Shown here piece by piece: positions 8,555 through 27,676 of a stretch of 58,432 bases of DNA. The notes beneath the pieces are model-generated. The model did no database searches and was not told the DNA's origin. It saw nothing but the letters and a program-made list of their open reading frames with translations. The position numbers and the translations under genes are program-made. The DNA comes from an uncultured archaeon. GTDB lineage: Archaea > Hadarchaeota > Hadarchaeia > Hadarchaeales > Hadarchaeaceae. The stretch's first letter is position 1. Every line of letters begins with the position of its first letter. The stretch spans positions 1 to 58,432 of the forward strand of contig CAKZTQ010000021.1 in NCBI GenBank assembly GCA_937921735.1. The letters are read 5' to 3'.

Positions 8555-8614
8555 AATTATGTTATGATGTGGTAGAACCCTTTATGGTTTAATCATTATT
8601 AATAAAAAATTAAG

Positions 8615-8700
8615 TGGACCGGGCGGGATTCGAACCCGCGGCCTCCCGCTTTCTCGGGCACCATGCGAAGCGGGCGTTCATACCGCTGAACTACCGGCCC
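8615..8700 (-). tRNA. tRNA-Ala(CGC) with 13-nt intron at 37/38
   Basis: Cloverleaf GGGCCGG...CCGGTCCA, G3:U70 Ala identity pair, anticodon CGC, intron TGGTGCCCGAGAA forming a BHB, T-loop TTCGAAT. Confidence 0.95.
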
Positions 8701-8749
8701 AAAATTAATTTTGACCGATGACTTAAATTTATGCCCCCCATTTGAACAA

Positions 8750-9076: not shown

Positions 9077-9252
9077 AATGACCGATAGGTATCCCTTTTC
9101 GCTCAAAAAGTAAAAACATTGGGGCACCCAAACCGCACATTTATAAGCAACCTTGGAGCAGTCAAAGCGGATACAACGGGGTAAAAACCCTTAGGAAAAC
9201 AGCTGGGCTGTTTTTCTTGAGTTGTATCCAGAAAAGAAAGAGGAGAGTAGGA

Positions 9253-9423
9253 ATGGCGTACAGACAGTTTGGGCGCAGGGAAGGTTTCAAGCGAGAGATG
9301 TACAAAGCGATCTGCTCCGATTGCGGGGCCGAAACCGAGGTCCCATTTAAGCCGACCGAGGGCAGACCGGTGTACTGTAGGGCTTGCTTCCAAAAGCGCC
9401 GAGGGTCAAGGGGCCGGTACTAG
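9253..9423 (+). CDS. CxxC-x17-CxxC zinc-ribbon protein
   Basis: REMYKAICSDCG..TEVPFKPTEGRPVYCRACF; AGGAG upstream of ATG 9253. Confidence 0.9.
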   Translation: MAYRQFGRREGFKREMYKAICSDCGAETEVPFKPTEGRPVYCRACFQKRRGSRGRY

Positions 9424-9552
9424 GGCTATTTAAAGAGCTTTAGTTCTGGGCGCTGAGCGCTGGACTAGTGGTGGATATCTTTCAAAGTGGCGAACGTTCG
9501 CCAGCTCCAACCCGGAATCGATTTTAAATAGAACAACGAAAATTCTCGTGGT

Positions 9553-9628
9553 GGGCCCGTAGCTCAGCTTGGCTCGGAGCGCTCGGCTGATAACCGGGAG
9601 GTCCGGGGTTCGAATCCCCGCGGGCCCA
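9553..9628 (+). tRNA. tRNA-Ile(GAT)
   Basis: GGGCCCG...CGGGCCCA acceptor, CT-GAT-AA anticodon loop, TTCGAAT T-loop. Confidence 0.96.
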
Positions 9629-9757
9629 CTCTTCGAGCAACTTGCTGTCGATAAGCGAGCTTTAAACACCAAATGGGGCTATTTGAATCTTTTAAAGAGA
9701 AGCTTCTATCCACAAATCTTTTAAATATACAACATAAAGAGGGATGGAGGGTGAAAA

Positions 9758-10282
9758 ATGGCCAGAAAATTTGGGATGTTAGACGTTGTCCTCACCATTG
9801 TCGGCGCAGTGATCTATGGACTAGGATGCTACGCTACAATGGGCATCGCAATCGGTTTCATCACCCTCAGACCAGCTTCGTTCATAGCCTGCCTTTGGGG
9901 AGTGCTCTTCGGTCCATGGGTCGGTGGTTTAGCTGCTGGAATAGGTAATACCTTTATCTCGGATATCCTCGCTGGCTGGTTCGGAGTTGGCGGAGTAGGG
10001 GGCTTCGTCGGAAACTTCATGATGGGATTCATCCCGGGACTACTAGTTAGGGACGCTCGAAACTGGAAAGCGGTGGCCCTTTGGTCCGGTGTGTCGGCGG
10101 TGGTCTGTGCCTTCTTCGTTGGGGGTTGGATTGCCCTCATGGGCTACGCTCCCTTCTGGGTACTCTTCTGGACGGTGATCCTCGTCGATGTACCACCCAA
10201 CGTCATAGCGACGCCGATTGCCGTTAACTATCTGCTGGAGCCCATAAGGAAAAGAGGCTTATACTGGAGAGAGAGGAAATAG
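9758..10282 (+). CDS. ECF transporter substrate-specific S component
   Basis: 174 aa, ~6 TM helices, LRPA...GVLFGPWVGGLAAGIGN..SD motif. Confidence 0.85.
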   Translation: MARKFGMLDVVLTIVGAVIYGLGCYATMGIAIGFITLRPASFIACLWGVLFGPWVGGLAAGIGNTFISDILAGWFGVGGVGGFVGNFMMGFIPGLLVRDARNWKAVALWSGVSAVVCAFFVGGWIALMGYAPFWVLFWTVILVDVPPNVIATPIAVNYLLEPIRKRGLYWRERK

Positions 10283-10304
10283 CCCCGTAAAGCTCCATAC
10301 TAGC

Positions 10305-10327
10305 TATGTTATTTTTTATTTTTTTTA
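10305..10327 (+). terminator. Oligo-T archaeal terminator candidate
   Basis: Long T tract ~25 nt after the S-component stop. Confidence 0.45.
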
Positions 10328-10426
10328 AAGTGAAGAGATTTTTCTCTATCAAAATAAAAATCGTCTAAAATAAATGACTCTAAATGACTCACAGCCTTGA
10401 TGGAACTTTGCTATGGTTTTAAAAAT

Positions 10427-10519
10427 CTAAGCAATAGAAGCAAGCCAAGCCACTAAAGCGCTCACAACGAAAGCAGCTATTATTGCACCTATAATCCCAG
10501 CTACTACTTTCCAGGACAT
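10427..10519 (-). CDS. 30-aa single-pass membrane microprotein
   Basis: MSWKVVAGIIGAIIAAFVVSALVAWLASIA*, preceded by a perfect AGGAGGT SD; not in the ORF track. Confidence 0.6.
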   Translation of the reverse strand: MSWKVVAGIIGAIIAAFVVSALVAWLASIA

Positions 10520-10634
10520 TTTTACCTCCTTACACCCCTTAAATTCTCCATATAAAAATGTTTTCTTTTTTGAAAAGAAGGAGATAAGGAGATAAAATCT
10601 TTATATTCCGAAATTTCAATTAATCAAAGATAAC

Positions 10635-12569
10635 ATGTACGGATGGGCAGGAAACGTTCTTTGGGTAAATCTTTCGTCGGAGAAAATTATAAAAAAACCG
10701 TTAGATGAGAAGATTGCCCACGATTTTTTGGGGGGAAGAGGATTCAACTCGAAGGTACTTTTTGACAATGTTGGGTCAAAAACCGACCCCCTCTCTCCTG
10801 AAAACGTTCTCTGTTTCGGAGTCGGTCCCATAACTGGTACCCCTTTTCCGAATAATGGAAGAATTCAAGTCAGCACCTTATCTCCCCTTTCCGGAATACT
10901 GGGAGATGGGAGCGCGGGGGGGTTCTTTCCCGCCTCCCTGAAGTTCGCAGGCTATGATCAAATAGTTGTAATTGGAAAAGCTGTTAAACCCAAATACTTG
11001 CTGATCGATGATGACCACGTGGAGTTAAGAGATGCTGGAGATCTGTGGGAAAGAAACGTGTGGGAAACTACGGATATGCTGCAGGAGGAACACGGCGATG
11101 ACTTTTGCGTCGCTGCAATCGGGCAAGCTGGCGAACATCTCGTGAGATTTGCATCGGTGATGTTCGATAAATATAGCTCCGCGGCTAGGGGGAGCGGGGC
11201 GGTCGCGGGCTCGAAGAACTTAAAGGCAATTGCCGTTCGTGGCACAAAAGAAGTGAAAATAGCTAGACCAGAAGAATTTGATACGATGGTGGAAGAGTCC
11301 AAGGAATTTTTCCTGAACGATGAGTTGCAGAAAGAAATAGCAACCTATGGATCTCATCTGGGGATGGTCCGATGGTGGCCCGGTTACAAATATTTTAAAA
11401 AACGCCTTGCACCGGACGAAGTTCCTTCCCCGCTTAAACCCGAAAGCTGGAAAAAATATGAAGTGGGTAGGATTAAGTGCTATGGATGTGTTGTTCCTTG
11501 CAAAAATGTTTACAAAATCCCAGATGAAAAGTATAATAACGAAATCGGTAAGGGCCTTCAGTTCGAGACCATCTATTGCTTAGGGACAAATTGTGGAGTA
11601 GTTGACCCAGTAGCTATCATGATCATGGGGAACTTAGCTGATAAATATGGGATGGATGCTATTGCTCTCGGAAATGCTATAGCGTTTGCCAAACAGCTTT
11701 ACGAACTTGGTATAATAACAAAAGAACATACCGGCGGACTCTCGCTCGAATGGGATGCGAAAGACGATCAAATAGAGCTCATCCATCAGATTGCAATGAG
11801 AGAGGGTTTTGGAAATATCGTTGCAGAGGGCATGTATTATATCGCGAAGAAATTCGGGGAAAAAGCCATGGAGTACTGTTATCATGTTAAGGGATTATGT
11901 CGAGGCCCTGGCAACGATATGCCGCCCTTATGGGGGCTGGGGAACGCCACTTCAACTCGGGGTGCAGATCACCTTCGTGGACGGACGCTAGCGATATCGC
12001 CGAACGACAAACACATTTTTTCAAAGCTGATACAAGCTGGGCATTTACCTCGAGATCCGGTCCCTCTGTTGATTACCGCGGAGAATGCTAGCACGCTCGC
12101 AGATTCGCTGGGATGCTGTAAGGGTTCCGTTATAACGTGGTCAAGTACCCTCCCGCTAATCTACAAATATCCACTTTGGGAAGGGGTAGTGAAACTTTTG
12201 GCGGTTGTTACCGGTGTAGAATTTAGTATTCATGCCATCGTTGATTGTTTAGAAAGGATATATGCCATAGAAAGAGCACTGTTGGTAAAAAGAGGGATAA
12301 AGCGAAAACATGATAGGCTCCCACTACATCCTTCGGTTAGCAAAACAGAGGGAAAAAATCTCCAAATAGAACACGAAAAACTCCTAACCGAGTATTATAC
12401 GCTTCGAGGTTGGGATCCGCACTCTGGCGCCCCTACAAGGGAAAATCTTGAAAGGCTTGGTTTGAAATATGTTGCGGACGAGCTAGAGTCTCACGGGCCA
12501 TATCCTGACTGGGACGGTCCACCCTATTGGCCCCTCGAGAAGTATCCTACCGGTGGCGCTAGAGCTTAG
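10635..12569 (+). CDS. Tungsten aldehyde:ferredoxin oxidoreductase-family protein (divergent)
   Basis: GWAGNVLWVNLS, LGGRG, SPLSG, GSKNLKAI, CYGCVVPC, YGMDAI, RGADHL, EYYTLRGWD. Confidence 0.92.
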   Translation: MYGWAGNVLWVNLSSEKIIKKPLDEKIAHDFLGGRGFNSKVLFDNVGSKTDPLSPENVLCFGVGPITGTPFPNNGRIQVSTLSPLSGILGDGSAGGFFPASLKFAGYDQIVVIGKAVKPKYLLIDDDHVELRDAGDLWERNVWETTDMLQEEHGDDFCVAAIGQAGEHLVRFASVMFDKYSSAARGSGAVAGSKNLKAIAVRGTKEVKIARPEEFDTMVEESKEFFLNDELQKEIATYGSHLGMVRWWPGYKYFKKRLAPDEVPSPLKPESWKKYEVGRIKCYGCVVPCKNVYKIPDEKYNNEIGKGLQFETIYCLGTNCGVVDPVAIMIMGNLADKYGMDAIALGNAIAFAKQLYELGIITKEHTGGLSLEWDAKDDQIELIHQIAMREGFGNIVAEGMYYIAKKFGEKAMEYCYHVKGLCRGPGNDMPPLWGLGNATSTRGADHLRGRTLAISPNDKHIFSKLIQAGHLPRDPVPLLITAENASTLADSLGCCKGSVITWSSTLPLIYKYPLWEGVVKLLAVVTGVEFSIHAIVDCLERIYAIERALLVKRGIKRKHDRLPLHPSVSKTEGKNLQIEHEKLLTEYYTLRGWDPHSGAPTRENLERLGLKYVADELESHGPYPDWDGPPYWPLEKYPTGGARA

Positions 12570-12590
12570 TTTTATTTGAGGTGCACAATA

Positions 12591-13586
12591 TTGAAGGGGG
12601 AATACTTGAACTACAAATACAGGAAATCGATGGACGAATTCGAGAAACTTTTGGTACCTACAATAAATGGGCGCACACCCACATTTCTCGGCGTGCCACG
12701 GGCAAAAAACAAGGAAGATCTAAAAAGTGCTGATGCCGCAATAATTGGTATCCCATTTTTGCGTTCCCCCCCAGTCGGTAGAGAACTTCAACCTTCAATA
12801 CTTGACGTTTACAATCTGCGACGAGCGTCTTTGAAGTATGGGGGATATTTACCTGAGCTAGATCTAGAAGTATTCGAATACGTAAAACTCGTGGACTATG
12901 GAAACATCGAAGTCATACAAGGGAACGTCGAAAAATCTATCGACCAAACGGCGAACAAAATCTGTGAAATATTGGAGGCGGGATGTGTTCCGATCACCAT
13001 AGGCACCCCTCCCGCTGGATGTTATCCAGTAGCCAAAGCGATGGTAGAGAAACTAAACAAGGTTGGCATAGTCCATTTGGATGCCCATTGCGATAACCTA
13101 GAAGAGCACGCCGGGGGCAAATGGTCCGGAGCATGTTGGGTCGCTAGGCTTTCTGAACTTGAGAACTTTGATATGAAAAATTTCGTCCAGATCGGCATCA
13201 GAGGGCCTAGGATCTCCAAAGAACAAATAGACTGGCATAAAAAGAAAGGCAGCCATTTTTTTACCATTCGAGACATCAGAGAAAAAGGCGTTGAGGAAAT
13301 TCTAGATGACACATTACGTCACATCTCCGGTAACAAAGTTCTCCTTGCTATCGATTTCGATGTTTTGGATTTGGGCGCCGGACCTGGTCTCGACGAGCCC
13401 GCCGGAATTTCAACATGGGAGTTGCTAAAAATTTCCTATGAAATTGGAAAAAGTAACTTTGGCGGATTATGTGTGGAGTGGATACCTTCTTCCATCACTC
13501 CCTTGTACTGGATAGTTACATGGACTATTTTATATACGTTGGCCGGGATGGCTATGGGAAAGATCGGGATCTCTCAAAGTCCTTAG
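12591..13586 (+). CDS. Ureohydrolase (arginase/agmatinase family), atypical metal site
   Basis: PTFLG, DYGN, HLDAHCD, QIGIRG, IDFDVLD..PG; TTG start after GAGGTG (start uncertain). Confidence 0.85.
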   Translation: MKGEYLNYKYRKSMDEFEKLLVPTINGRTPTFLGVPRAKNKEDLKSADAAIIGIPFLRSPPVGRELQPSILDVYNLRRASLKYGGYLPELDLEVFEYVKLVDYGNIEVIQGNVEKSIDQTANKICEILEAGCVPITIGTPPAGCYPVAKAMVEKLNKVGIVHLDAHCDNLEEHAGGKWSGACWVARLSELENFDMKNFVQIGIRGPRISKEQIDWHKKKGSHFFTIRDIREKGVEEILDDTLRHISGNKVLLAIDFDVLDLGAGPGLDEPAGISTWELLKISYEIGKSNFGGLCVEWIPSSITPLYWIVTWTILYTLAGMAMGKIGISQSP

Positions 13587-13622
13587 ACCAAAAATCGTAA
13601 TCGTGCGAAGGAAAACGGGACC

Positions 13623-14996
13623 GTGATGAAGGTAGACATGGTAATAGAAAATGGCAAGATTTTCGTTGATGGGAAAATAGTAAAAGCAGCGATCGGCATA
13701 AATGAAGGCAAAATAGTTGCTATAAAGAAAGACCTAAATCAATTCGTGCCCAATCAAACTGTGAACGCTGGCGGAAATCTGGTCATACCAGGTCCAATAG
13801 ATGCGCACGTCCATGCCCATATTTTTGGTCTACTTCACCGAGATGATTTCAAAACAGTGACGGAAGCAGCGGCGGCCGGCGGGACTACTACAATTGTGGA
13901 TTTTGTTAACCCTACAAATAGAACGCTCAGAAAAGCTTTTCTCAAGAAAAAGGCGGCTGGTGAGAAAAAATGTCTTATCGACTTTGGCTTACATGCTTAC
14001 GTTTGTAGTGAAAGAAACCTAGCCGAGATAGGGGAACTAACAAAATTAGGAGTGTTTTCATTTAAACACTTCATGGCAAGCCCTGATGGCGTTCCAGCTG
14101 TAAATGATGACCTTTTATTGCGATCCTTTGAGGTAATAAAAAAATATAGGGCCATGGCCTCTGTACATGCTGAAGATGAAGACCTTTGTTCAAAACTAAA
14201 ACAAAAATTTATCGAGATCGGTAGAAGAGATCCATTATCTCACTGCTTATCCAGACCGCCAATAACGGAAACTAGGGCGATCTCGAAAGCTATCGCTTTC
14301 GCAATTAAAGTAGGGGTTCCACTTCATGTCTTCCACGTAAGTACTGGAAAAGGATCAGCGCTAATAGGCGAAGCCAAGAGAAAGGGAAGACCCATTACTG
14401 CGGAGACTTGTCCTCATTATTTAATTTTTACCCGCAATGACTTAAAAAAACTCGGCCCTTTTCTACAGGTGACACCGCCATTAAGATCCTCAAAAGATAA
14501 AGCTAAGCTCTGGCAAGCCCTTACAAATGGGACTATAGATTTTGTTACTTCTGATCATTATGCCCCGCTCTTTGATGAAAAGAAAAAGGGCTGGGAAAAT
14601 ATTTGGGAAGTCGAAGCTGGCATTCCAGGTGTTGAAACAAGAGTTCCACTGATTTTTGGAGAAGGATTCCATAAACGTGGGGTTCCAATAAAAAGAATAA
14701 TAGAGATGCTTTCAACTTCCCCGGCGAAAGTTTTTGGCATTTACCCAAAAAAAGGTACGATCAGATCTGGTTCTGATGCCGATTTGGTGATAATAGACCT
14801 TAAAAGAAAGCTCAAAATAGAGGCCACTAAACTGCATCAACAAGCGAATTGGACCCCATTTGAGGGAATGGAGGTGAGGGGGATCCCAATTCGGACTATA
14901 GTAAGGGGAGAAATGATCGCGGTAGAGGGAGAAGTGATAGGGAAGCCTGGTTATGGGAGATTCATCAAAAAGTCAGATATTAACATAACTATTTGA
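13623..14996 (+). CDS. Cyclic amidohydrolase (allantoinase/hydantoinase/dihydroorotase family)
   Basis: DAHVH, AAAGGTTT, SFKHFM, VHAED, HVFHVS, ETCPHYL, PPLR, SDHYAP, GSDADLV. Confidence 0.9.
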   Translation: MMKVDMVIENGKIFVDGKIVKAAIGINEGKIVAIKKDLNQFVPNQTVNAGGNLVIPGPIDAHVHAHIFGLLHRDDFKTVTEAAAAGGTTTIVDFVNPTNRTLRKAFLKKKAAGEKKCLIDFGLHAYVCSERNLAEIGELTKLGVFSFKHFMASPDGVPAVNDDLLLRSFEVIKKYRAMASVHAEDEDLCSKLKQKFIEIGRRDPLSHCLSRPPITETRAISKAIAFAIKVGVPLHVFHVSTGKGSALIGEAKRKGRPITAETCPHYLIFTRNDLKKLGPFLQVTPPLRSSKDKAKLWQALTNGTIDFVTSDHYAPLFDEKKKGWENIWEVEAGIPGVETRVPLIFGEGFHKRGVPIKRIIEMLSTSPAKVFGIYPKKGTIRSGSDADLVIIDLKRKLKIEATKLHQQANWTPFEGMEVRGIPIRTIVRGEMIAVEGEVIGKPGYGRFIKKSDINITI

Positions 14997-15948
14997 GGAT
15001 CCTTACGAAATGTTTGTACCTCGATTCAGGAAATATACCCATTTTTAGAAGGATCGTTTCTGCTTCTTGAATAGAAGTCGTTGAAGATAATTTGTTTGCG
15101 ATCCCCATTTCAGCCACTACATTTGGATCGAAAAAGAGGATGACCGCCGCTAGAGGATTTGGCTTAACTATTCTCGATCCTAGCACTCGATATGTTCGAT
15201 GATCGCCCTTGGCAGCGGCAATTATTAGAGGATTGATCGGATCCGAGACCACGGAATGAGCTTTTTCTAAGTCGAGAACGTCTTTTTGCGTGAGTCCATA
15301 TGCCCCGAGAAAGCCTCCCAGTTTCATTATTTTTGACACTATTGAGTCCAGCTCCTCTACTGAAAGCTCCCCGTCCATGGCATAGTTGCTGAGCGCAAGA
15401 AATGAAGGTATGTTGGTTTGAACTATCGCCGATAAAAGCAATGAATCATGGAGGGGGGTCTGAACGGCGCCCGTTTTTCCGTCATATAGAGAGTCTGATC
15501 CCGAATCGATGTCAATGAGTATATCCAAATTCAGTTTTTTGATCACTTCTCGTAAACCGCTAACAATTCCCATGACACCTTGTCGGGCCGAGATGACCAA
15601 ACAGCGAATGCCAAAGAGTTTGGAGATCTTAGCTTCGGGCGGTACTCCCTCAAAAACGCGCGTTTTTATCCACGTTTTTTCTGATACAAAAGCCACAGTA
15701 TCCGACAATATTTCCACATTTTTCATGTGTTTTATCGAATAAAATTCCGGCCCAAAAGTTTCGTAATTTTTTTTCTTCCACCACTGACAGGCCAAGTTGC
15801 CTAAATAAATATTTTCAACCCCTAGACGACGGAGATAATTCACCAACGGAATGCCATTAACAAAGTCGGTCGCTCCCGCACCTATTATCAATGCGCTTCT
15901 AGACTTGAGCGCAACCTCATCTAAGCTAGCTTTTGGTATTTTAGCCAT
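14989..15948 (-). CDS. DUF1152-like protein
   Basis: GAGATD, DIDSGSDSL...TPLHD, DGEL motifs resemble the DUF1152 family. Confidence 0.6.
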   Translation of the reverse strand: MAKIPKASLDEVALKSRSALIIGAGATDFVNGIPLVNYLRRLGVENIYLGNLACQWWKKKNYETFGPEFYSIKHMKNVEILSDTVAFVSEKTWIKTRVFEGVPPEAKISKLFGIRCLVISARQGVMGIVSGLREVIKKLNLDILIDIDSGSDSLYDGKTGAVQTPLHDSLLLSAIVQTNIPSFLALSNYAMDGELSVEELDSIVSKIMKLGGFLGAYGLTQKDVLDLEKAHSVVSDPINPLIIAAAKGDHRTYRVLGSRIVKPNPLAAVILFFDPNVVAEMGIANKLSSTTSIQEAETILLKMGIFPESRYKHFVRILK

Positions 15949-16020
15949 GGACCCGCCGCCTTTTTCATTTCAATCTAAGATTTATATACCGTATCGTAAC
16001 TTCAGTAAAAGGGGAAAAAT

Positions 16021-17022
16021 TTGACCAAAGTGTACTACGACAAACATGCGGACATCTCAATTTTGAAAGATAAGCGGATAGCGGTTATCGGATATGGAAA
16101 CCAGGGAAGATCACAAGCATTAAATATGCGGGATAGTGGGCTCGATGTAATCGTGGGAGGAATTAGAGATAAGAGCTGGAGGATTGCTAAAAAAGATGGT
16201 TTTGAAACCTATCCGATCAAAAAAGCATCGGAAATAGCAGATATCATTTGCTTGTTAATCCCGGATGAGGTACAACCGGCAGTTTATGAGAAGGAAATTA
16301 AGGATAAACTTCAGGAGGAGGATGTTCTGTATTTCTCCCATGGATACAATATTTACTACGGATTCATTAAACCTCCGTCCTTCGTTGATGTCATAATGGT
16401 TGCCCCAAAAATGATTGGGGTGGGAGTAAGGGAACTATTTGTCAAAGGTTTGGGTGTACCCGCTATGATGGCGGTTCATCAGGATTTTTCCGGGAAGGCC
16501 AAAAAGATAGCTTTAGCCATAGCAAAAGCAATAGGGGCCACTAGGGTCGGAGTCATTGAGTCCTCTTTTGAAGAAGAAACGGTTTTGGATATTTTTGGTG
16601 AACAAATGATGGCCGGCGGTTCTCTCTTTATGACAAAGCTGGCCTTTGAAGTTTTAGTAAATGCTGGATACGATCCACTTACAGTTATTTTTAATCTTTA
16701 CTTATCGGGGGAGAGCATCGAGGAAGCTAAATTGCGAGCAAAACACGGTTTATTTAAACAACTAAAGTTTCACTCCACTACAAGTCAATACGGACAACTT
16801 ACTCGAGGTGCTTCCTTGGTTTCCGAGGAATTGAAAAAGAAGCTCCAAGATACTATCGATGAAATCAAGTCGGGGAAATTTGCGAAGGAATGGGCAAAAG
16901 AAATACATAACAATTACTCGTACTTCAACAAGCTGTGGGAGGATGTGTTGAAACATCCGATAAATAAACTTGAAGAAGAGGCCAAAAAGAGGATAAAAAT
17001 GGAGTACTTGTTAGGGTCCTAA
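16021..17022 (+). CDS. Ketol-acid reductoisomerase-like oxidoreductase (divergent IlvC paralog)
   Basis: IGYGNQG, LIPDE, FSHGYN, MVAPK, DIFGEQ, STTSQYG. Confidence 0.85.
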   Translation: MTKVYYDKHADISILKDKRIAVIGYGNQGRSQALNMRDSGLDVIVGGIRDKSWRIAKKDGFETYPIKKASEIADIICLLIPDEVQPAVYEKEIKDKLQEEDVLYFSHGYNIYYGFIKPPSFVDVIMVAPKMIGVGVRELFVKGLGVPAMMAVHQDFSGKAKKIALAIAKAIGATRVGVIESSFEEETVLDIFGEQMMAGGSLFMTKLAFEVLVNAGYDPLTVIFNLYLSGESIEEAKLRAKHGLFKQLKFHSTTSQYGQLTRGASLVSEELKKKLQDTIDEIKSGKFAKEWAKEIHNNYSYFNKLWEDVLKHPINKLEEEAKKRIKMEYLLGS

Positions 17023-17032
17023 ACTATGGGCC

Positions 17033-18880: not shown

Positions 18881-18882
18881 GG

Positions 18883-20211: not shown

Positions 20212-21108
20212 TTAGCCCCTCCTCTTATGTTGTCTAAAGGCTAACCCGGTTAGCTCCCTTATCTCAGTAAAGCCTTTCCGATGCATAAAGGTTAGTATCT
20301 CGTCCACTATGTTACCAAAAATGTTTCTATTACTTATCGCAGCGGTATGTAAACTGATGAGCGTGGCCCCCGCCATCAGCATTTCGATCGCATCTTTTCC
20401 GCTTGCTATGCCTCCTCCTCCGAATATCGGACAATCGGTATTCATGTATACCTTGGCTACGCATGCTAAGGCCACCGGTTTAATCGCCGGCCCTGAAAGA
20501 TACCCAAATCCATATTCTCCACCTAACAAAGGTTTCCCTAATTCGATGTCGATCGCCAAGGCTGGACCAATAGTATTGATGCAAGAAAAGGCATCAGCGC
20601 CTGCTTGTTGGAATTTTCGAAGAAAAATGGGTAAGTCTAGGAGATTTGGACCAAATTTAACTACTAGAGGAATACCGATCCTCTTTTTCACGGTTTTAAT
20701 GAGCCTCACTAACGATGGAAGGGAGGCAGATGGGACAGGTACCTCTATCATCGAAGCTCCCGCATCTTGGAACGATTTGGCTAGCTCCGAAGTTTCCTTG
20801 GGCGTTTTTCCTTTTACGCTCGCTATTATTGGTAAATTACATTTTTTAGCTATTTCAAATTCTTGGAGCCATCTTTCTCTACCTATATCAGACCAGTCTA
20901 TGTTGAGGAGCCCGTGATTAACTTTGATAATGGAAGGTTTGGGAGCTTCTGCTGGCTCAGGATAAATAGTCTTGGTTACTACGCCACCCACTCCCCTTTG
21001 TGAAGCTATTGCTAGAATTGATTTCCCATCTTTAGTCAACGGGCCCGCTGAGATCACTGTTGGATACCTGAAATTAACTCCTGCCACCTCGACTTGGAGC
21101 TTGGACAT
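20212..21108 (-). CDS. Dihydroorotate/dihydropyrimidine dehydrogenase-like FMN protein
   Basis: SAGP, VTKT, VVKFGP, INTI, GYLSGPAIKP, GGGGI; usual NxSCP loop replaced by EVPVPS. Confidence 0.85.
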   Translation of the reverse strand: MSKLQVEVAGVNFRYPTVISAGPLTKDGKSILAIASQRGVGGVVTKTIYPEPAEAPKPSIIKVNHGLLNIDWSDIGRERWLQEFEIAKKCNLPIIASVKGKTPKETSELAKSFQDAGASMIEVPVPSASLPSLVRLIKTVKKRIGIPLVVKFGPNLLDLPIFLRKFQQAGADAFSCINTIGPALAIDIELGKPLLGGEYGFGYLSGPAIKPVALACVAKVYMNTDCPIFGGGGIASGKDAIEMLMAGATLISLHTAAISNRNIFGNIVDEILTFMHRKGFTEIRELTGLAFRQHKRRG

Positions 21109-21118
21109 TCGACTTCAC

Positions 21119-22510
21119 CTACATAGGGAGAGACCAGGGGGGAGCAATGGGTTTTGCGATGGCTCGCTCTTGATATTTTTCCGCACATTCGATAGCTCTG
21201 TTGATCACTTCCTGCTCATCAACCGTGAGCACTTTCCCTTTCCTAGCTACAATGTTCCCATCGACCATCACGATTTCAACGTCGGATGCCCTTGCTCCAA
21301 ATGCCAGAACGCTCATTTTATCGAATGCTGGGGTCAGATGGGATTTTCCTGAAATATCTACTACAATAATATCAGCTTTTTTCCCGACTTCTAACGAACC
21401 AATTTCTTTTTCTAGCCTCAAAGCTTTTGCACCCCCTAAAGTAGCAAGTTCAAGAACTTGGGAGGGCGGCAAAATCGTGCGATCGAGGTGATGAACCCGG
21501 AGAAGGGCAGCAGCTAGAAGCATGAGTTCAAACATGTCAAAAACGTTAACTCCATCAATACCCAAGCCTACCGTGCATCCTCTCCGAAGCAACTCCACAA
21601 CAGGAGCGACGCCATTTCCTCCGAGCATATTGCTTTTGACGTTAAAAGCCAACTTAATATCATTTCTCTGCCATATGTCGAGTTCCTTCTTTGAGATGTA
21701 AATTCCATGAGCTGCAACCAAATCCGGACCTAAAAAGTTTAAACTGTCCAAGTATTCTATGGGGCCATTAAATCCTCGATGCCGTTTAATGAATTCTACT
21801 TCAAATGGTCCTTGGGCCACGTGTAGCTGGATACCGCATCCGTACTTGTTCGCGATTTCCCTAGTTTTAATAAGCGTTTCTGGATGACATGAGAAAGCCG
21901 TATGGACACACATCATTCCTTTTATTCTGGAATCTTTTCTCATATTCATTTTTCTCACGAAATTTTCATTTTCTTTTACCCCGAGCTCCCCGTTTTCTCT
22001 GCTTATCCTATCCGTTGCTTCAAAAGAACACACCGCACGAATGCCTACTTCCTCAACTGCCTTAGCAACATGATCCAATACTCCTGGCAGAGCATTCGGT
22101 GCTTCAATGATATCCGCCGTGCAAGTGATGCCACGTTTTAGCATTTCAACCGCAGCGAGAAGTGTTCCAACATAAGCGTCTTCCTTGGTACATGTCTCCT
22201 CTATCTTTGGCCACCACCACCGAGTCAATCGCTCGCCGAAGTCGGAGAAGTTTATTTCAGATGGAATGGGCAACTGCATATATCTCGTTAAGGAATTGTA
22301 CATGTGGTTATGGCAGGAAACAAATCCAGGTAATATAGCCCTTCCAGTTGCATCGATATGCTCATCTGCCCTCCACTCCTTTTTGATTTGTGATGTTTCA
22401 CCAACCGCTACTATCCTATTTTCCTCCACCACGACAGCGCCCTTTTCTATGATCCTCCTTTTTTCATCCATTGTGACAACATATCCATTCTCGAGAATGA
22501 CTGAAGCCAT
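21119..22510 (-). CDS. Amidohydrolase/deaminase (SsnA/chlorohydrolase-like)
   Basis: PGFVSCHNHMY, GITCTAD, HTAFSC, QLHVAQ, AAHG, LGID, GSLEVGKKADI. Confidence 0.88.
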   Translation of the reverse strand: MASVILENGYVVTMDEKRRIIEKGAVVVEENRIVAVGETSQIKKEWRADEHIDATGRAILPGFVSCHNHMYNSLTRYMQLPIPSEINFSDFGERLTRWWWPKIEETCTKEDAYVGTLLAAVEMLKRGITCTADIIEAPNALPGVLDHVAKAVEEVGIRAVCSFEATDRISRENGELGVKENENFVRKMNMRKDSRIKGMMCVHTAFSCHPETLIKTREIANKYGCGIQLHVAQGPFEVEFIKRHRGFNGPIEYLDSLNFLGPDLVAAHGIYISKKELDIWQRNDIKLAFNVKSNMLGGNGVAPVVELLRRGCTVGLGIDGVNVFDMFELMLLAAALLRVHHLDRTILPPSQVLELATLGGAKALRLEKEIGSLEVGKKADIIVVDISGKSHLTPAFDKMSVLAFGARASDVEIVMVDGNIVARKGKVLTVDEQEVINRAIECAEKYQERAIAKPIAPPWSLPM

Positions 22511-22542
22511 CAGCAAAAGCAAAGCAATACGACAATAAAAAG

Positions 22543-22561
22543 ATTGTGCTTAAAGCACAAT
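22543..22561. promoter_or_regulatory. Perfect inverted repeat, candidate operator
   Basis: ATTGTGCTT-A-AAGCACAAT between the LLM and amidohydrolase genes. Confidence 0.45.
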
Positions 22562-22583
22562 AGTAAGAAAAACTAATGCTTGA

Positions 22584-23570
22584 TCACGTTTCTCTGAGCC
22601 TCTGGAAAGTTCTCCCCAGAATCCCGATAGCCCTTTCTGGGTCTTTACCAATAGGGGCCGAACAAACAAGCTGAGTTACTCCGGCAGATATATGTTCCTT
22701 AACTTTTTTTAAACACTCATCAGGCGTGCCTGCTATAGCAAAGTTTTCAATCATTTCATCCGTCACGTGCTCTGAAGCTTTTTTCTCATCGGGTAAAGCG
22801 TCGATAATAGGTTTAATATCCTGCGCCGACATGTCAACACTTTTCAATACATACTGGGGCGTCACGGCCATACTGTAAACCAAGTAGGGGCGAGCCATTT
22901 GGAAAGCCTCTTCACGTGTATCAGCGACCGAAAAGATTACGGAGTTGGCAACATCGAAATTCGTTTTCTCCCGAGCCGAAGTTTCCAGACCTTTTTCGAT
23001 ATATTCGCGCGCGATCTCCACATACTTTGGTGGAACACTGCCAAGTAGCACACCATCTGCAATTTCACCAGCGAGTTTTAACATCTGGGGGCCCCTGCAT
23101 GCCAGATAAACTGGAATCTGCACGGGAGGAAAAGATAAACGAACATTTTCTATATTTATCATCTCTCCTTTAAAGCTTGTTTCATGTCCACTTATAACGG
23201 ATCTAAATACGTGCACAAATTCTCTTAAAACTTTCAAAGGTTTTCGAACGGCAAACTGAAGTGGGTTGAGTAAGTTTAATCCACCGATTCCCACCGCGAA
23301 AACCGCTCGTCCCCTCGCCAATTCTTGTAAAGAGGCCATAGCGATGGCGGTGATAACTGGGTGTCGCGTATAAGGATTTGTACATCCTGGGCCGACCAAC
23401 ACTTTGGAAGTCCGGAGTACGATCGCGCTCATCGTCACATAAACATCTCTATAAAAATCCTCGTCTGCAATCCAAATGTATTTAAAACCATTTTCTTCTG
23501 CAACTTGAGAAAGACGAACGAGATTTGTTATCTCCATATTTGGGATAAATAACAAACCAAACTCGACCAT
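22584..23570 (-). CDS. LLM-class, probably F420-dependent oxidoreductase (Mer-like)
   Basis: AEENGF..IWIAD, GPGCTNPYTRHP, GRAVFAVGIG, ACRGPQMLKLAGEIADGVLL, IAGTPDEC. Confidence 0.88.
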   Translation of the reverse strand: MVEFGLLFIPNMEITNLVRLSQVAEENGFKYIWIADEDFYRDVYVTMSAIVLRTSKVLVGPGCTNPYTRHPVITAIAMASLQELARGRAVFAVGIGGLNLLNPLQFAVRKPLKVLREFVHVFRSVISGHETSFKGEMINIENVRLSFPPVQIPVYLACRGPQMLKLAGEIADGVLLGSVPPKYVEIAREYIEKGLETSAREKTNFDVANSVIFSVADTREEAFQMARPYLVYSMAVTPQYVLKSVDMSAQDIKPIIDALPDEKKASEHVTDEMIENFAIAGTPDECLKKVKEHISAGVTQLVCSAPIGKDPERAIGILGRTFQRLRET

Positions 23571-23582
23571 GACAGTCCCTGA

Positions 23583-24401
23583 TTACAAATATCGCCAGAA
23601 GAAAACTCCTGACAAATTCGTTCGCACCTTGAAATAAATAGCGACCGCTAGAATGAAAATACCCGTGATCATGAAAAGGTAATCTTTCCAAGTATATACA
23701 TTCGGTTTTAAAAAGGTTCTCCTTTTTTCGGCGCCGAACCCTTTTAGTTGTAAGGCTATTGCCATCTGTCTAGCTTTATCGAGAAAAGTAAGAATAAGCG
23801 GAATGAAAATTGGCACGTATGCCTTGATCCTTTGAACTAGTCCACCTGTATCAAATTTTTGACCCCTGCATGCGAAGGAATCCTTTATGTTAGAAAAGTG
23901 TGCAAATGATTCCGGCAAGAACTTAAAGCTAGAAATCACCATAAATGGCCCGGTATAAGAAAAGCCTAAGTGCTCTTGGGCAAACTGTCCAACTGAGCAA
24001 GCCAAATCAGTCATATCCGTTACCATAACGAAAAACAAACAAATCGTAACTGACGTTATTATCCGGAGACCCATAGCTAGAGCATAAATAACGCCATCTA
24101 CAGTTATAAGGCCGCCCAATATTGGTGTGCCGGTTCTATAGAAGAATGGCCAAACGACTATGATAAACGCTACCAGGAGTGGGTACGCTATCTTTACTAC
24201 TTTAGCGAATTCCCTCCCAATCCTAGCCATTTTAGTCATGCTAAGAACCAAAATTAGGACGGCCGATAGGAAAATGGGGTTAGTAATGATAATGGGTACA
24301 ATGATAAGACAAATCCACCAAATTGCCTTCACGAGCGGATTAAGGAGGTGGAAGGGAGAATCCCTTTTTGCTGCATCAACTACGATGTCAACTATTCGCA
24401 T
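23583..24401 (-). CDS. ecfT: ECF transporter transmembrane T component
   Basis: LNPLVK, several TM helices, ACRG and LQLKGF variants of the conserved Arg motifs. Confidence 0.88.
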   Translation of the reverse strand: MRIVDIVVDAAKRDSPFHLLNPLVKAIWWICLIIVPIIITNPIFLSAVLILVLSMTKMARIGREFAKVVKIAYPLLVAFIIVVWPFFYRTGTPILGGLITVDGVIYALAMGLRIITSVTICLFFVMVTDMTDLACSVGQFAQEHLGFSYTGPFMVISSFKFLPESFAHFSNIKDSFACRGQKFDTGGLVQRIKAYVPIFIPLILTFLDKARQMAIALQLKGFGAEKRRTFLKPNVYTWKDYLFMITGIFILAVAIYFKVRTNLSGVFFWRYL

Positions 24402-25221
24402 GTTTCTCTCTCCTCAATTTTTTGATTAGCTCGGCGGATATTTTTTCAATTGTAAAGTCGTCTACATTGATAAATTTAGATAAATAAGGCTGTAACAAGT
24501 AGCTCGTCGGAGGAATTATATGTGCGTTTTTCAGCGTTTCAAATTTAAGAAACGCCTCACGGGTCTGGCCGTCTATCAGGATCTGCCCTCTCGCCATAAC
24601 TACCACCCGTTCAACAAATTGGGCAACTACTTTCATGTTGTGGGTAATTACTATTACTGTCTTTCCCTCTTTTTGCAGCTTTTTAAGAAGCTCCATCATT
24701 TGGATGCTCTCCCTCCAGTCAAGTCCAGTGGTTGGTTCGTCCACTATTAGCACGGAAGGTTGCATCGTCAGAATTGAAGCGACTGCTACCTTCTGTCTTT
24801 GGCCCCTACTTAGGTTATAGGGTGCCTCATCTAGGAACTCGTATAATCCAAGTGTTTTTGCCACCTCTTCAACTACCTCTTTTATTCTTTTCTCAGAGAA
24901 TCCTAAGTTCCGAGGACCAAAGCTCATCTCCTCTCTAACCGACTCAGCGAAAATTTGATGATCAGGATTTTGAAATACGTATCCTATCCGCCCCGCCAAC
25001 TGTGAGATCTTATATTCCCTTATATCACGCCCGTCGATCAAAACTTGTCCTTTAGTGGGCTTTAATAAGCCAACAAAATGTTTCACGAGGGTGGTTTTAC
25101 CCGAACCATTGTGCCCTACTATTGCTAAAAACTCCCCATCTCTAATCTTAAGATTGACATCGCGAAGGGCGACGACACCCGATGGTTGATATACATACCA
25201 TAAATTTTTTACTTCAATCAT
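24388..25221 (-). CDS. ecfA: ECF transporter ATPase
   Basis: GHNGSGKT, FQNPDHQIF, LSRGQ, DEPT, ITH. Confidence 0.92.
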   Translation of the reverse strand: MIEVKNLWYVYQPSGVVALRDVNLKIRDGEFLAIVGHNGSGKTTLVKHFVGLLKPTKGQVLIDGRDIREYKISQLAGRIGYVFQNPDHQIFAESVREEMSFGPRNLGFSEKRIKEVVEEVAKTLGLYEFLDEAPYNLSRGQRQKVAVASILTMQPSVLIVDEPTTGLDWRESIQMMELLKKLQKEGKTVIVITHNMKVVAQFVERVVVMARGQILIDGQTREAFLKFETLKNAHIIPPTSYLLQPYLSKFINVDDFTIEKISAELIKKLRREKHANS

Positions 25222-26072
25222 TTTTTCGCCTTTATAAGTTTTGTAAACAACTCTACCCCTTCCTCAAATCTAACGGGAATTTTAGGAAGGCGGACGCCCG
25301 CCTTTAACAAATTATAGGCTATTTGGGCAACTGCAGGAGGATCTAATCCATGCTTTTTTAAGAAGTCAACTTGAGATAATACCTCGTCCGGAGAACCCAT
25401 CGCAACTATCTTACCCTCACTTATCACCACAATTTTGTCTGCAAACTCAGCGAGTATCTCTATGTTGTGATCCACCATCACTATTGTTTTACCTTCCTTT
25501 TTAAGACGCGCAACTACTTCCATTACTTCCTCGACACCTAACGGATCCAAATCGGATAGGGTCTCATCTAAAACCAGTACTTCTGGGCGAAAAGCTAAGA
25601 TTGTAGCTATTACTACCCTTTGTTTTTCTCCCCCGGAGAGAAAGAAAGGATGTCTTTTTCGATATCCCTCTAAGCGCGTAATTTTAAGGGCTTCGTCTAC
25701 CCTTTTCTGGATTTCTTCCCGTGGATATGCAAAGTTTTCTAATTGGAAAGCTACTTCTTTTTCCACATCCGTCATAAAGAGCTGAGATTCTGCATCTTGT
25801 AAACATATCCCCACGGTTTTCAATATTTCCTTAAGAGAGAGTTCTTTGGTATCTTTTCCCTTAATCAGAATTTTGCCGCTCAACTCACCTTCTACCGCAT
25901 GAGGTATAACACCAGCGAGACAATAGCATAATGTTGTCTTCCCAGCCCCTGATGCACCACATATCCCAACAAATTCTCCTTTTTTGATCTCTAGAGATAC
26001 CCGCTCAAGCGCTTTTTTGCTGCTTTGTTTGTACGTGAAACTTACGTCCTGAAGTTCGAGCAGTGCCCCCAT
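25218..26072 (-). CDS. ecfA: ECF transporter ATPase
   Basis: GASGAGKT, QDAESQLF, LSGGE, LDET, VDH. Confidence 0.92.
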   Translation of the reverse strand: MGALLELQDVSFTYKQSSKKALERVSLEIKKGEFVGICGASGAGKTTLCYCLAGVIPHAVEGELSGKILIKGKDTKELSLKEILKTVGICLQDAESQLFMTDVEKEVAFQLENFAYPREEIQKRVDEALKITRLEGYRKRHPFFLSGGEKQRVVIATILAFRPEVLVLDETLSDLDPLGVEEVMEVVARLKKEGKTIVMVDHNIEILAEFADKIVVISEGKIVAMGSPDEVLSQVDFLKKHGLDPPAVAQIAYNLLKAGVRLPKIPVRFEEGVELFTKLIKAKK

Positions 26073-26217
26073 CTTTATCTCACGACCATTGTTTTTCTGT
26101 ATTTTTATCTTTTTCCGATTCTAATTTGGTCAATTTGACAAACGGTCTTAAAATAGAAAGTGGAAGAAAAAAATATTTTTCATTTTGTCTCACATAATCT
26201 AATGGCAAGGGGTTAAC

Positions 26218-27582
26218 ATGATCGTAAAAAATGCGACGGAAATCATTGATAACGCAAAAAATAAAAAACTGCAAAAAGCGAGAAAAATCTTAGTAGAACT
26301 AGTCGATTATGTCATAAAAAATGTTGATCCTTACCTTGCGGTAAAGAAAAATGTGAAAGTAGAAGGCAGAAAACTTAAAGTGAAAAAACGTGTTTTTGAT
26401 CTATCCAAGATCGAAAGAGTTCTTGTCATAGGAGGAGGCAAGGCGAGCGTAAGAATGGCAGAAGCTTTAGAGGAGCTTTTAGATGAAAAAATTACCGATG
26501 GAATTATCGTTGCACCTAAGAGAAAATCTTTGAGAAAGATAGAAGTGGTTGAAGCCGGACATCCAATTCCTACGTTGGACGGAATAAAAGGAACCGAAAA
26601 AATGCTCTCTTTGCTGGAACAAGTGAATGAGAAAGATCTAGTTTTCTGTTTATTGAGTGGCGGTGGCTCCGCGCTAATATGCCTGCCCTCGACAGATCTA
26701 ACGCTAGAGGACCTAAGAGAAACCACCGATCTTTTATTAAAAAGCGGTGCTACGATCCATGAAATAAACATCGTTAGAAAACACTTATCCCAAGTAAAAG
26801 GAGGACAACTAGCGGCTAAAGCCCAACCTGCTCAAGTCGTTAGTTTAATCATCTCCGATGTTCTTGGAAACAGGATCGATACGATCGCTAGTGGCCCTAC
26901 CTCCCCAGATCCGAGCACGTATGCGGACGCCCTCCGCGTTTTAAAAAAACGTGAGATCCTCAAAAAAATTCCAAGCAGGGTTTTAACGCATTTGAGGAAA
27001 GGAGCTGATGGAAAAATTCCTGAGACCCCTAAGCCAAATGATCCCTTGTTCAAAAATGTGGTAAATTTAATCATTGCGGATAATTCCGACGCTCTCAAGG
27101 CAGCTGCTGAAGTTGGAAAAATCCATCGCTTAAACGTGCACGTATTTTCGAAAAACATGTCAGGAGAAGCTAGGAAATTCGGTGAGAGATTCGCTGGTGT
27201 AGCAAAAAATGTGATCGCATCGGGAGCTCCGGTGAAAAGACCTGCCCTCCTCTTATGTGGAGGAGAGACAACGGTCAAAGTCGAGGGAGAAGGAAAGGGT
27301 GGACGCAATCAAGAATTAGTACTGGGCGCAGCACTTCAGATCGACGGTTTAAACGTGGCGATCGCCTCATTTGGAACAGATGGAATAGATGGGCCAACCG
27401 ATGCTGCAGGAGCAGTGGCGGATGGGTTCACCCTTTGGAGAGCGAGGCATCTGGGATTAGATCCCGTCGCTTTCCTCGAAAGGAATGATTCATATAATTT
27501 CTTCAAACATCTAGACGACCTGATCATCACCGGGCCAACCGAGACCAATGTAATGGATGTCGCCTTAGCCATAATACCCTAA
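26218..27582 (+). CDS. Glycerate 2-kinase (GckA/TtuD, MOFRL family)
   Basis: GGGKA, AGHPIP, LSGGGSAL, RKHLS..KGG, SDV, ASGPT, GGETTV, GGRNQE, TDGIDG, TNVMD. Confidence 0.93.
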   Translation: MIVKNATEIIDNAKNKKLQKARKILVELVDYVIKNVDPYLAVKKNVKVEGRKLKVKKRVFDLSKIERVLVIGGGKASVRMAEALEELLDEKITDGIIVAPKRKSLRKIEVVEAGHPIPTLDGIKGTEKMLSLLEQVNEKDLVFCLLSGGGSALICLPSTDLTLEDLRETTDLLLKSGATIHEINIVRKHLSQVKGGQLAAKAQPAQVVSLIISDVLGNRIDTIASGPTSPDPSTYADALRVLKKREILKKIPSRVLTHLRKGADGKIPETPKPNDPLFKNVVNLIIADNSDALKAAAEVGKIHRLNVHVFSKNMSGEARKFGERFAGVAKNVIASGAPVKRPALLLCGGETTVKVEGEGKGGRNQELVLGAALQIDGLNVAIASFGTDGIDGPTDAAGAVADGFTLWRARHLGLDPVAFLERNDSYNFFKHLDDLIITGPTETNVMDVALAIIP

Positions 27583-27676
27583 AATCCAGAATAGTTCATA
27601 CATTGCTATTGTCATGTGCGGTTAGCGAAAATTTTATGTGACTTTTAAAGGATTTCCTAAGAGATTGGGAGTATCG

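Follow-up and report, generated by a model that had tools for sequence, protein, structure and literature searches.

A 58,432-nucleotide stretch of DNA from an uncultured archaeon of the Hadarchaeota (contig CAKZTQ010000021.1 of assembly GCA_937921735.1, hereafter referred to as the window) carries, at about 10.3–27.6 kb, a block of hydrolase, flavoprotein and aldehyde ferredoxin oxidoreductase (AOR) genes, and raises the question of what such a set of enzymes might do in an archaeal host. To our knowledge, anaerobic purine breakdown was not resolved before 2025, and the work was confined to bacteria with selenium-dependent molybdenum hydroxylases. A first interpretation of the locus, made from its letters alone (the sequence-only reading), had proposed a self-contained catabolic island for an undescribed tungsten- and F420-based pathway of nucleobase or N-heterocycle degradation. 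Our analysis leads us to favour, with middling confidence, a related view, namely that the block is a horizontally acquired island encoding an AOR-linked variant of a reductive purine-type N-heterocycle route. All 15 genes that had been named were recovered in place by open reading frame (ORF) calling and comparison with Pfam and NCBIfam; together with a neighbouring tRNA gene, they are:

9553–9629, forward strand: tRNA-Ile(GAU); GC content falls about 0.7 kb to its right
9758–10282, forward strand: putative S component of an energy-coupling factor (ECF) transporter, 174 aa (PF12822, 30.9 bits; PF07155, 30.4 bits)
10635–12569, forward strand: AOR1, 644 aa (PF02730, 243.5 bits; PF01314, 289.5 bits)
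12576–13586, forward strand: arginase-fold protein (PF00491, 131.6 bits)
13623–14996, forward strand: hydantoinase/dihydropyrimidinase-type cyclic amidohydrolase, HyuA-like (TIGR02033, 382.1 bits)
14989–15948, reverse strand: DUF1152 protein (PF06626, 136.8 bits)
16021–17022, forward strand: class I ketol-acid reductoisomerase (KARI; NF004017, TIGR00465)
17033–18880, reverse strand: AOR2, 615 aa (PF01314, 443.4 bits; PF02730, 264.8 bits)
18883–20211, reverse strand: AmhA, deaminase-type amidohydrolase (PRK06038, 464.4 bits)
20212–21108, reverse strand: UacX-like PF01180 flavoprotein, related to dihydroorotate dehydrogenase (DHODH) and PydA, 298 aa (126.7 bits)
21119–22522, reverse strand: AmhB, SsnA-like ring-opening-type amidohydrolase (SsnA models, below cut-off)
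22584–23570, reverse strand: Mer-like luciferase-family oxidoreductase (LLM; PF00296, 204.1 bits)
23583–26072, reverse strand: ECF T, A and A' genes (PF02361, 85 bits; TIGR04521, 279.9 bits; TIGR04520, 252.6 bits)
26218–27582, forward strand: DUF4147 and MOFRL domain protein of glycerate 2-kinase type (PF13660, 277.7 bits; PF05161, 134 bits)

The 14 genes from AOR1 (starting at 10635) to the glycerate kinase gene (ending at 27582) have a GC content at third codon positions (GC3) of 0.36–0.46; that of TIP49, located 55 nt to the right of the block, is 0.72, and the other flanking genes measured range from 0.59 to 0.93. The edges of this low-GC block are sharp, the right one being formed by the glycerate kinase gene. 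The S-component gene has a GC3 of 0.61 and lies outside, and its host-like composition indicates that it was probably not part of the acquired DNA, so that the description of the whole set as one AT-rich block holds for the 14 genes and not for the S component. Within the block, eight co-directional genes (ECF A', A and T, LLM, AmhB, flavoprotein, AmhA and AOR2) follow one another at distances of −14 to 61 nt, and a second run consists of the genes for AOR1, the arginase-fold protein and the hydantoinase, separated by 6 and 36 nt. The DUF1152, KARI and glycerate kinase genes are separate transcription units, the last of them divergent from the eight-gene run.

A template for reading this set of genes is the reductive uric acid pathway of E. 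coli and C. difficile, also called yanthine pathway, as laid out in the available sections of Li et al. 2025 (PMC12507026). According to these sections, XdhD reduces uric acid to 2,8-dioxopurine, which is dearomatised by YgfK or by the PF01180 protein UacX, a PydA-like and probably ferredoxin-dependent enzyme derived from clostridial PydA, only when the reaction is coupled to hydrolysis by SsnA; HyuA then opens the second ring, and YgeW or UacY, YgeY and YgeX complete the pathway, with the carbamate kinase YqeA also belonging to the gene set. The same source mentions clusters from Chloroflexota in which the reductase is a PF00296 protein, putatively F420-dependent. A second account of this pathway, likewise consulted in its available part, is given by Liu et al. 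2025 (bioRxiv 10.1101/2025.04.24.650524).

The island resembles this system in several respects. Its PF01180 reductase gene adjoins, at a distance of 10 nt, that of an amidohydrolase of the SsnA group, and on the other side of AmhB, 61 nt away, lies a PF00296 gene as in the Chloroflexota variant (PMC12507026, available sections), so that both types of candidate dearomatising reductase stand beside AmhB. A HyuA-like hydantoinase is present, and a purine-type deaminase is encoded nearby, like guaD in E. coli. Since the SsnA-like, PF01180, hydantoinase and luciferase-family proteins match the bacterial scheme of 2025, we regard the island core as a variant of it, and to speak of an undescribed pathway would be too strong. 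The differences are that the island has two AOR-family genes and no XdhD, that it contains an arginase-fold protein, a DUF1152 protein, KARI, a glycerate kinase and an ECF importer in addition, and that it is an archaeon that harbours them. An XDH (xanthine dehydrogenase)-family domain is absent from all 50 window proteins that were scanned, and none of the 15 island proteins matches E. coli XdhA or XdhD in BLASTP. While the type of pathway has thus been known since 2025, its archaeal, AOR-linked form with atypical enzymes and without YgeW, YgeX and YgeY appears, from the genes present, to be new. The words archaea, tungsten and aldehyde ferredoxin oxidoreductase do not occur in the available sections of either text (PMC12507026; 10.1101/2025.04.24.650524), and literature searches, which did not extend to the supplements of PMC12507026, where variants may be listed, found no paper tying AOR to such clusters.

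To assess how far this neighbourhood is conserved, 185,579 species genomes were scanned with one peptide pattern, on the basis of an alignment of flavoprotein relatives. The best 80 of at least 601 matching stretches were analysed; ORFs were called in these loci (numbered with the prefix L) and compared with the island and E. coli proteins, and 73 of the 80 contained a classified match. Nineteen loci, defined by a DHODH homologue of at least 355 aa, are referred to as ferredoxin-fused and 54 as PyrD-like. Of the 12 best related loci, 8 have the DHODH-like homologue and an SsnA-like amidohydrolase as neighbours, and homologues of AOR, hydantoinase, AmhA and DUF1152 recur as well; an amidohydrolase of the AmhA, AmhB or SsnA type is found in 11 of the 19 ferredoxin-fused loci. 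The best match, L001 from Bathyarchaeia, encodes homologues of DUF1152 (58% identity), AmhA (58%), AmhB (52%), AOR (44%) and the UacX-like flavoprotein (43%), and its DUF1152 gene (604–1566), the nearest homologue in the loci, stands beside that of AmhA (1572–2909). L002 from Heimdallarchaeota combines AOR, two amidohydrolases and a UacX-like protein, L007 from Thorarchaeota AOR, hydantoinase and a UacX-like protein, and L011 and L012 from Spirochaetales encode SsnA-like, UacX-like and AOR proteins together with a bona fide YgeY (434 and 388 bits, above the cut-off of 321). YgeY and YgeW types occur in L011, L012 and L013. As the core recurs elsewhere, the island genes are no accidental set, and the general logic put forward in the sequence-only reading, with import, deamination, ring redox chemistry, ring opening and C–N hydrolysis, finds support in it. 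Co-occurrence elsewhere is seen for AmhB, the UacX-like protein, AOR, AmhA, DUF1152 and the hydantoinase, and, within the 19 ferredoxin-fused loci, not for LLM, KARI, glycerate kinase, ECF T and the arginase-fold protein.

Two of the loci show modules of their own kind. In L003 (Hadesarchaea, JAUWYN010000004.1, 6966–15425), two reductase–hydrolase modules lie side by side, one comprising a hydantoinase, an SsnA-like protein (410 bits, below cut-off) and a UacX-like protein, the other combining a PreA-like protein of 406 aa and a GltD/PreT-like protein with a bona fide SsnA (572 bits). This arrangement points to a pair of related substrates or to two steps in succession. In L057 (Actinomycetota, 384–3519), genes for a ring-opening amidohydrolase of the AtzD/TrzD type (515 bits) and a nitroreductase directly precede a ferredoxin-fused PreA-like gene, possibly another heterocycle module of a different kind.

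The replacement of Xdh by AOR, which had been suggested for the island, is backed by the distribution of the two families. An AOR is encoded in 5 of the 19 ferredoxin-fused loci (L001, L002, L007, L011, L012), an XDH-family enzyme in 6 (L004, L006, L013, L018, L036, L067), and both together in none; the PyrD-like loci contain AOR in 1 and XDH in 0 of 54 cases (Fisher test against the ferredoxin-fused loci, p = 0.004 and 0.0002, respectively). On a tree of the flavoproteins, the AOR and XDH neighbour labels interleave, each requiring at least four changes, which indicates recurrent exchanges between AOR and XDH next to one and the same module. The 35 rows of the tree were made up of the window protein, 19 proteins from the loci, 10 database relatives taken from the 26 closest and, as outgroup, 5 PyrD-like rows, the remaining PyrD-like loci being left out. 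The window protein falls inside a 27-row UacX-like clade (support 98/96) that is separate from the PyrD-like proteins and from a three-row PreA/DPD-like clade.

Separately, L008 from Chloroflexia, which was counted as PyrD-like, contains upstream of the DHODH homologue a frame of 1356 aa (5862–9932) with XDH-family domains (2Fe-2S, hammerhead and molybdenum cofactor-binding) and an amidohydrolase; the fusion may be genuine, or simple ORF calling may have created it artificially. Small proteins of the ThiS/MoaD family adjoin the AOR genes in L001 (two), L002 (one) and L007 (one), which fits the association of MoaD with AOR in archaea reported in the available part of PMC2948915, and a polyferredoxin of about 160 aa is encoded near AOR in L002 and L007. 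The window island has neither a ThiS/MoaD-family protein nor such a polyferredoxin.

Among the hydrolases, AmhB is united with E. coli SsnA, an archaeal SsnA and amidohydrolases neighbouring UacX-like genes in a 13-row clade (support 100/100), the archaeal SsnA being that of L003 (11085–12419), which scores 572 bits against a cut-off of 444. Its nearest structures include 8-oxoguanine deaminase (153 bits). AmhA is related to the deaminases acting on 5'-methylthioadenosine and S-adenosylhomocysteine (MTA/SAH) and on 5'-deoxyadenosine; it reaches 464.4 bits with PRK06038, below the NCBIfam cut-off of 609, it matches the MTA/SAH deaminase 4f0r (238 bits) and TM0936 (216 bits), and it retains the HxxE motif (as HIAE). 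With the L001 AmhA, to which it is 58% identical, it forms a pair outside the SsnA group (support 100/99). The two had been described as deaminase-type amidohydrolases, a label that suits AmhA; AmhB groups with the ring-opening SsnA. The hydantoinase remains slightly below the TIGR02033 cut-off (382.1 vs 393.25 bits), shows 32% identity to E. coli HyuA in an alignment of 456 columns, and matches L-hydantoinase (310 bits) and D-hydantoinase (304 bits); all metal and catalytic residues of HyuA are retained, with HxH, Lys, His, His and Asp aligned.

The UacX-like flavoprotein stays below all NCBIfam cut-offs (PreA model NF006183, 126 bits). Among 5.8 billion proteins, only three relatives are 63–83% identical to it, all of them 295–298 aa long, and the next tier, at 36–49% identity, carries a C-terminal domain with two [4Fe-4S] clusters (Fer4). 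Where dihydroorotate dehydrogenase B (DHODB) has ELNISCPNVKHGG... (ELNISCPNV...), the window protein aligns with EVPVPSASLPSL, and in the alignment of relatives the position of the Cys loop is a gap both in it and in its closest relatives. With PydAc, the ferredoxin-dependent dihydropyrimidine dehydrogenase of clostridia, and the reductive Pyd pathway, the island would share the reduction of a heteroaromatic ring by a DHODH-fold flavin mononucleotide protein, after which a cyclic amidohydrolase acts; the window protein differs in having neither the ferredoxin domain nor the Cys loop, the hydrolase that partners it is SsnA-like, and no beta-ureidopropionase accompanies it. LLM resembles Mer, with 232 bits to Mer structures and 281.8 bits in the Mer model NF002619 (cut-off 276); it fails TIGR03555 (277 vs 348.7 bits) and, unlike Mer, lies in a foreign catabolic operon and not with genes of a C1 pathway. 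As a member of this family, it presumably uses F420.

Both AORs contain the AFOR_N and AFOR_C domains and the [4Fe-4S] cysteine motif, and thus share the two-domain architecture and CxxCxxxC of the Pyrococcus furiosus enzyme (PDB 1aor). AOR2 is of the canonical type, scoring 489 bits to 1aor over its full length, with CxxCxxxC at residue 290, whereas AOR1 is far more divergent (304 bits to 1aor); the nearest structures of AOR1 are nonetheless AORs (308 and 304 bits), and its CxxCxxxC is at residue 282. What distinguishes the pair from the P. furiosus AOR, apart from the divergence of AOR1, is the location of the genes inside an operon of heterocycle hydrolases. Going by family membership, the AORs would be tungsten enzymes and F420 would be used in the pathway; Pfam scans found no tungstate transporter or cofactor gene among the window proteins.

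Taken together, these enzymes could be arranged into the following route, for which the substrate is most likely of purine type. The ECF module would take up the substrate, and AmhA would deaminate an amino-substituted ring. The UacX-like flavoprotein, the Mer-like LLM with F420H2, or both would then carry out a two-electron reduction of the ring, and the SsnA-like AmhB would at once open the reduced ring by hydrolysis. The hydantoinase would open the remaining five- or six-membered ureide ring, and ureido or guanidino groups might be removed by the arginase-fold protein and perhaps the DUF1152 protein. On grounds of general enzymology, KARI and the glycerate kinase might plausibly, for example, form glycerate by reduction of a keto or aldehyde acid with three carbons and then phosphorylate it, a role that is speculative; glycerate as the end-point of the pathway is a guess.

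The AORs would act in this scheme as ferredoxin-linked redox partners on a carbon at the aldehyde level, either that of a free aldehyde, set free when the ring opens, or an amidine carbon of the ring, and could exchange electrons with the dearomatising reductase, filling the slot of the bacterial XdhD. The closeness of AOR2 to the P. furiosus AOR favours the free-aldehyde role, in which electrons would be fed to the reductase. The repeated swaps between AOR and XDH favour, on the other hand, an action on the amidine or lactam carbon of the ring like that of XdhD. The bolder proposal is that an AOR tungstoenzyme, in place of an XDH-family molybdo/seleno-enzyme, performs the job that XdhD has in the step from uric acid to 2,8-dioxopurine, taking oxygen off a purine ring carbon or putting it on in a ferredoxin-linked reaction (amidine C–H/lactam C=O); it is a tentative one that we consider rather unlikely.

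A number of observations weigh against a purine-type route in an acquired island. AmhB falls short of both SsnA models tested (TIGR03314/IPR017700; 300.4 vs 444 and 288.2 vs 455.5 bits), has no more than 26% identity to E. coli SsnA, and shares with its L001 orthologue an HxxQ motif (HVAQ) where all other aligned rows shown have HxxE, so that, in spite of its place in the fully supported clade, it is to be called SsnA-like and not SsnA. The flavoprotein lacks the ferredoxin domain that all ferredoxin-type relatives carry as well as the NxSCPN loop with the catalytic Cys (or Ser) of DHODH, and the proteins of the best 80 loci are all at most 43% identical to it. BLASTP with the 15 island proteins (E ≤ 1e-3) found no homologue of YgeW, YgeX, YgeY, YqeA, YgfK or XdhD, and Pfam found no match to PF00185, PF01546, PF00291 or PF00696 in the island; LLM, KARI, glycerate kinase, ECF T and the arginase-fold protein have no match in the 19 ferredoxin-fused loci. 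With these five lacking a counterpart and with no YgeW, YgeX, YgeY or carbamate kinase, which in bacteria serve the ureido and C3 steps at the end of the pathway, the description of the island as self-contained finds no support. The absence of overlap between AOR and XDH among the 19 loci has a chance probability of p = 0.11, and the exclusivity alone is therefore not significant. AOR2 scores 531, 423, 412, 391 and 382 bits to the AORs of the related loci and 489 bits to 1aor, and being equally close to the general P. furiosus AOR, it bears no mark of specialisation as judged by bit scores; with 1aor, the L001 AOR reaches 503 bits and the L011 AOR 413 bits. Finally, neither an integrase nor a flanking direct repeat was detected at the island, where a shift in composition and an adjacent tRNA-Ile are present: no integrase domain was found by Pfam among the island and window proteins, and no direct repeat joins both borders, the pairs found being short two-copy matches within genes.

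The accessory genes add features of their own. The arginase-fold protein lies below all NCBIfam cut-offs, with 7esr/7oi1 as its nearest structure (94.5 bits). GTPPAG replaces GGDHS, whereby the first metal-binding His is lost, while the DAHCD and DFDVLD ligands of the binuclear site are kept. Among 61 relatives with E ≤ 1e-20, the closest of which are 66–90% identical to it, GGDH occurs in 7, all of them distant, and DAHxDN and DxDVLD are conserved; as the loss of the first motif is common to the relatives and the other motifs are invariant, we consider the protein a member of a conserved variant subfamily and not the product of a decaying gene. Four longest-contig values (256959, 38861, 32358 and 9424) are identical between the relatives of the arginase-fold protein and those of the flavoprotein, which is indirect evidence that the two genes travel together in the closer relatives. 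For DUF1152, 266 representative clusters out of 1.84 billion contain relatives at E ≤ 0.001. Its predicted structure is of high model confidence (pLDDT 96.3), and yet no fold relative was found in the PDB beyond weak Rossmann-like similarity (best query-normalised TM score 0.41, MshB); a search of Atlas structures gave no usable match, and a literature search no paper. The gene described earlier as KARI-like indeed belongs to the KARI family and actually passes two IlvC equivalog cut-offs (NF004017, 344.2 vs 336 bits; TIGR00465, 316.7 vs 226.15 bits). The glycerate kinase (GC3 0.40) reaches 283.3 bits in NF041176 (cut-off 550). Pfam identifies ECF A, A' and T clearly, all three remain below the NCBIfam equivalog cut-offs, and their genes overlap by 14 and 4 nt; the S component exceeds the PF12822 cut-off narrowly (30.9 vs 30.7 bits), has no NCBIfam match and contains several hydrophobic segments.

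These features bear on what else the island might be for. The substrate could be a cofactor-type heterocycle, such as a pterin, a flavin or a 7-deazapurine, that is salvaged or degraded, rather than bulk purine. ECF transporters are mainly known for vitamins and their precursors, which counts for this possibility, as do the weak match of the S component to the riboflavin S-component family (PF07155, 30.4 bits), the closeness of LLM to Mer, an enzyme of a pterin derivative (232 bits), and the presence of 8-oxoguanine deaminase among the structure matches of AmhB (153 bits). However, the S gene is host-like in composition and its family match lies at threshold, L011, L012 and L013 carry the YgeY and YgeW types of the purine route, and two AORs and nine enzymes would be many for salvage, which makes a cofactor-type substrate unlikely in our view.

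It could also be that there is no single pathway and that the genes, as a mosaic, were merely co-transferred, with an AOR and the glycerate 2-kinase serving glyceraldehyde oxidation, KARI the synthesis of branched-chain amino acids, and AmhA the salvage of 5'-deoxyadenosine or MTA. The tight runs of eight and of three genes, and the recurrence of the combination of AmhB, UacX-like protein, AOR, AmhA, DUF1152 and hydantoinase in several phyla, speak against such an assortment and render it distinctly unlikely, even though KARI passes the IlvC cut-offs, AOR2 resembles a general AOR, AmhA is nearest to MTA/SAH deaminases, the KARI, glycerate kinase, LLM and ECF genes are unconserved in the related loci, and the KARI, glycerate kinase and DUF1152 genes stand in separate transcription units.

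A reductive pyrimidine route for uracil, cytosine or thymine would employ a dihydropyrimidine dehydrogenase of the ferredoxin or F420 type, a dihydropyrimidinase and deaminases of the cytosine type, and the AOR would oxidise malonate semialdehyde. The flavoprotein is a relative of PydA and PreA (126 bits in NF006183), the cyclic amidohydrolase comes near the dihydropyrimidinase cut-off (382.1 vs 393.25 bits), and UacX itself has been traced to clostridial PydA (PMC12507026, available sections). We nevertheless hold this route to be very unlikely: the flavoprotein groups in the UacX-like clade and not in the PreA clade that pairs with PreT, it has no catalytic Cys loop, its conserved neighbour is an amidohydrolase of the SsnA group and not PydB, and Pfam and NCBIfam reveal no gene for a beta-ureidopropionase or a beta-alanine aminotransferase in the island.

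That the low-GC block is an assembly chimera and no true insertion is scarcely credible, for although its composition switches abruptly and neither an integrase nor an att repeat was detected, host-like sequence on both sides would require two independent false joins and a tRNA-Ile gene lies at the left edge; because of this flanking sequence, insertion is far likelier than misassembly. The flanks encode housekeeping functions (NrdD, the HcyBio homocysteine enzyme, Asd, DapB, DapA, LysC, LysA, GGGP synthase) as well as a 2-oxoacid:ferredoxin oxidoreductase, HypF and a threonyl-tRNA synthetase (ThrRS) with the archaeal editing domain, the gene set of an anaerobe. The ThrRS is 78% identical to a protein of a Candidatus Hodarchaeaceae archaeon, 70% to one of Candidatus Hadarchaeota and 66% to one of Hadesarchaea, and since it is nearest to Hadarchaeota proteins, the host chromosome is assigned to Hadarchaeota.

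Should the island indeed encode an AOR-linked purine-type route, widespread archaea of sediments and hot springs could recycle nucleobases without molybdenum or selenium, and the AOR family would gain a role in the catabolism and chemistry of N-heterocycles. Action of AOR on a ring carbon would mean a purine route independent of molybdenum and selenium for Hadarchaeota, Bathyarchaeia, Asgard archaea and some spirochaetes, and repeated swaps of AOR and XDH beside one reductase–hydrolase pair would constitute a clear case of non-orthologous displacement between pterin-enzyme families. Candidates for enzymology are the SsnA relative with HxxQ, the DHODH-fold reductase without the Cys loop, the arginase-fold subfamily that has lost the first metal His, and DUF1152, for which no fold relative is known.

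Some further observations concern the island and its surroundings. Rfam was applied to the whole window at its gathering threshold and to 9400–27700 at E ≤ 0.1, and at the island both gave tRNA alone, with neither a riboswitch nor another RNA; an archaeal RNase P RNA lies at 46305–46592 and marks the window as archaeal. The 352 AT-rich nucleotides that separate AOR1 from the S-component gene were examined for a small ferredoxin gene; they contain none and only a 30-aa ORF (10427–10519, reverse strand), which is wholly hydrophobic and has GGAGGT 5 nt before its ATG. To the left of the tRNA-Ile, at 8808–9140 on the reverse strand, a 110-aa ORF covers positions 1–67 of the 137 of the ABC ATPase family PF00005, about the first half, and is probably a truncated gene remnant between two tRNA genes. 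The other of these, tRNA-Arg(UCG) at 8614–8700 on the reverse strand, measures 87 nt against the 71 positions of the Rfam tRNA model, which suggests an intron or a long insertion. A 24-nt direct repeat of its 3' end, 88% identical, brackets an AT-rich segment of 0.5 kb (8065–8629, GC about 0.37–0.41) whose sole gene encodes a pyrimidine-dimer DNA glycosylase (8120–8554; PF03013, 73 bits), and which looks like a tiny element integrated at the tRNA-Arg. The right flank (27600–58432) is itself heterogeneous, with a GC content of about 0.53–0.56 and GC3 of 0.64–0.76 at 27.6–36 kb, and of 0.62–0.69 and 0.82–0.93, respectively, at 36–58 kb.

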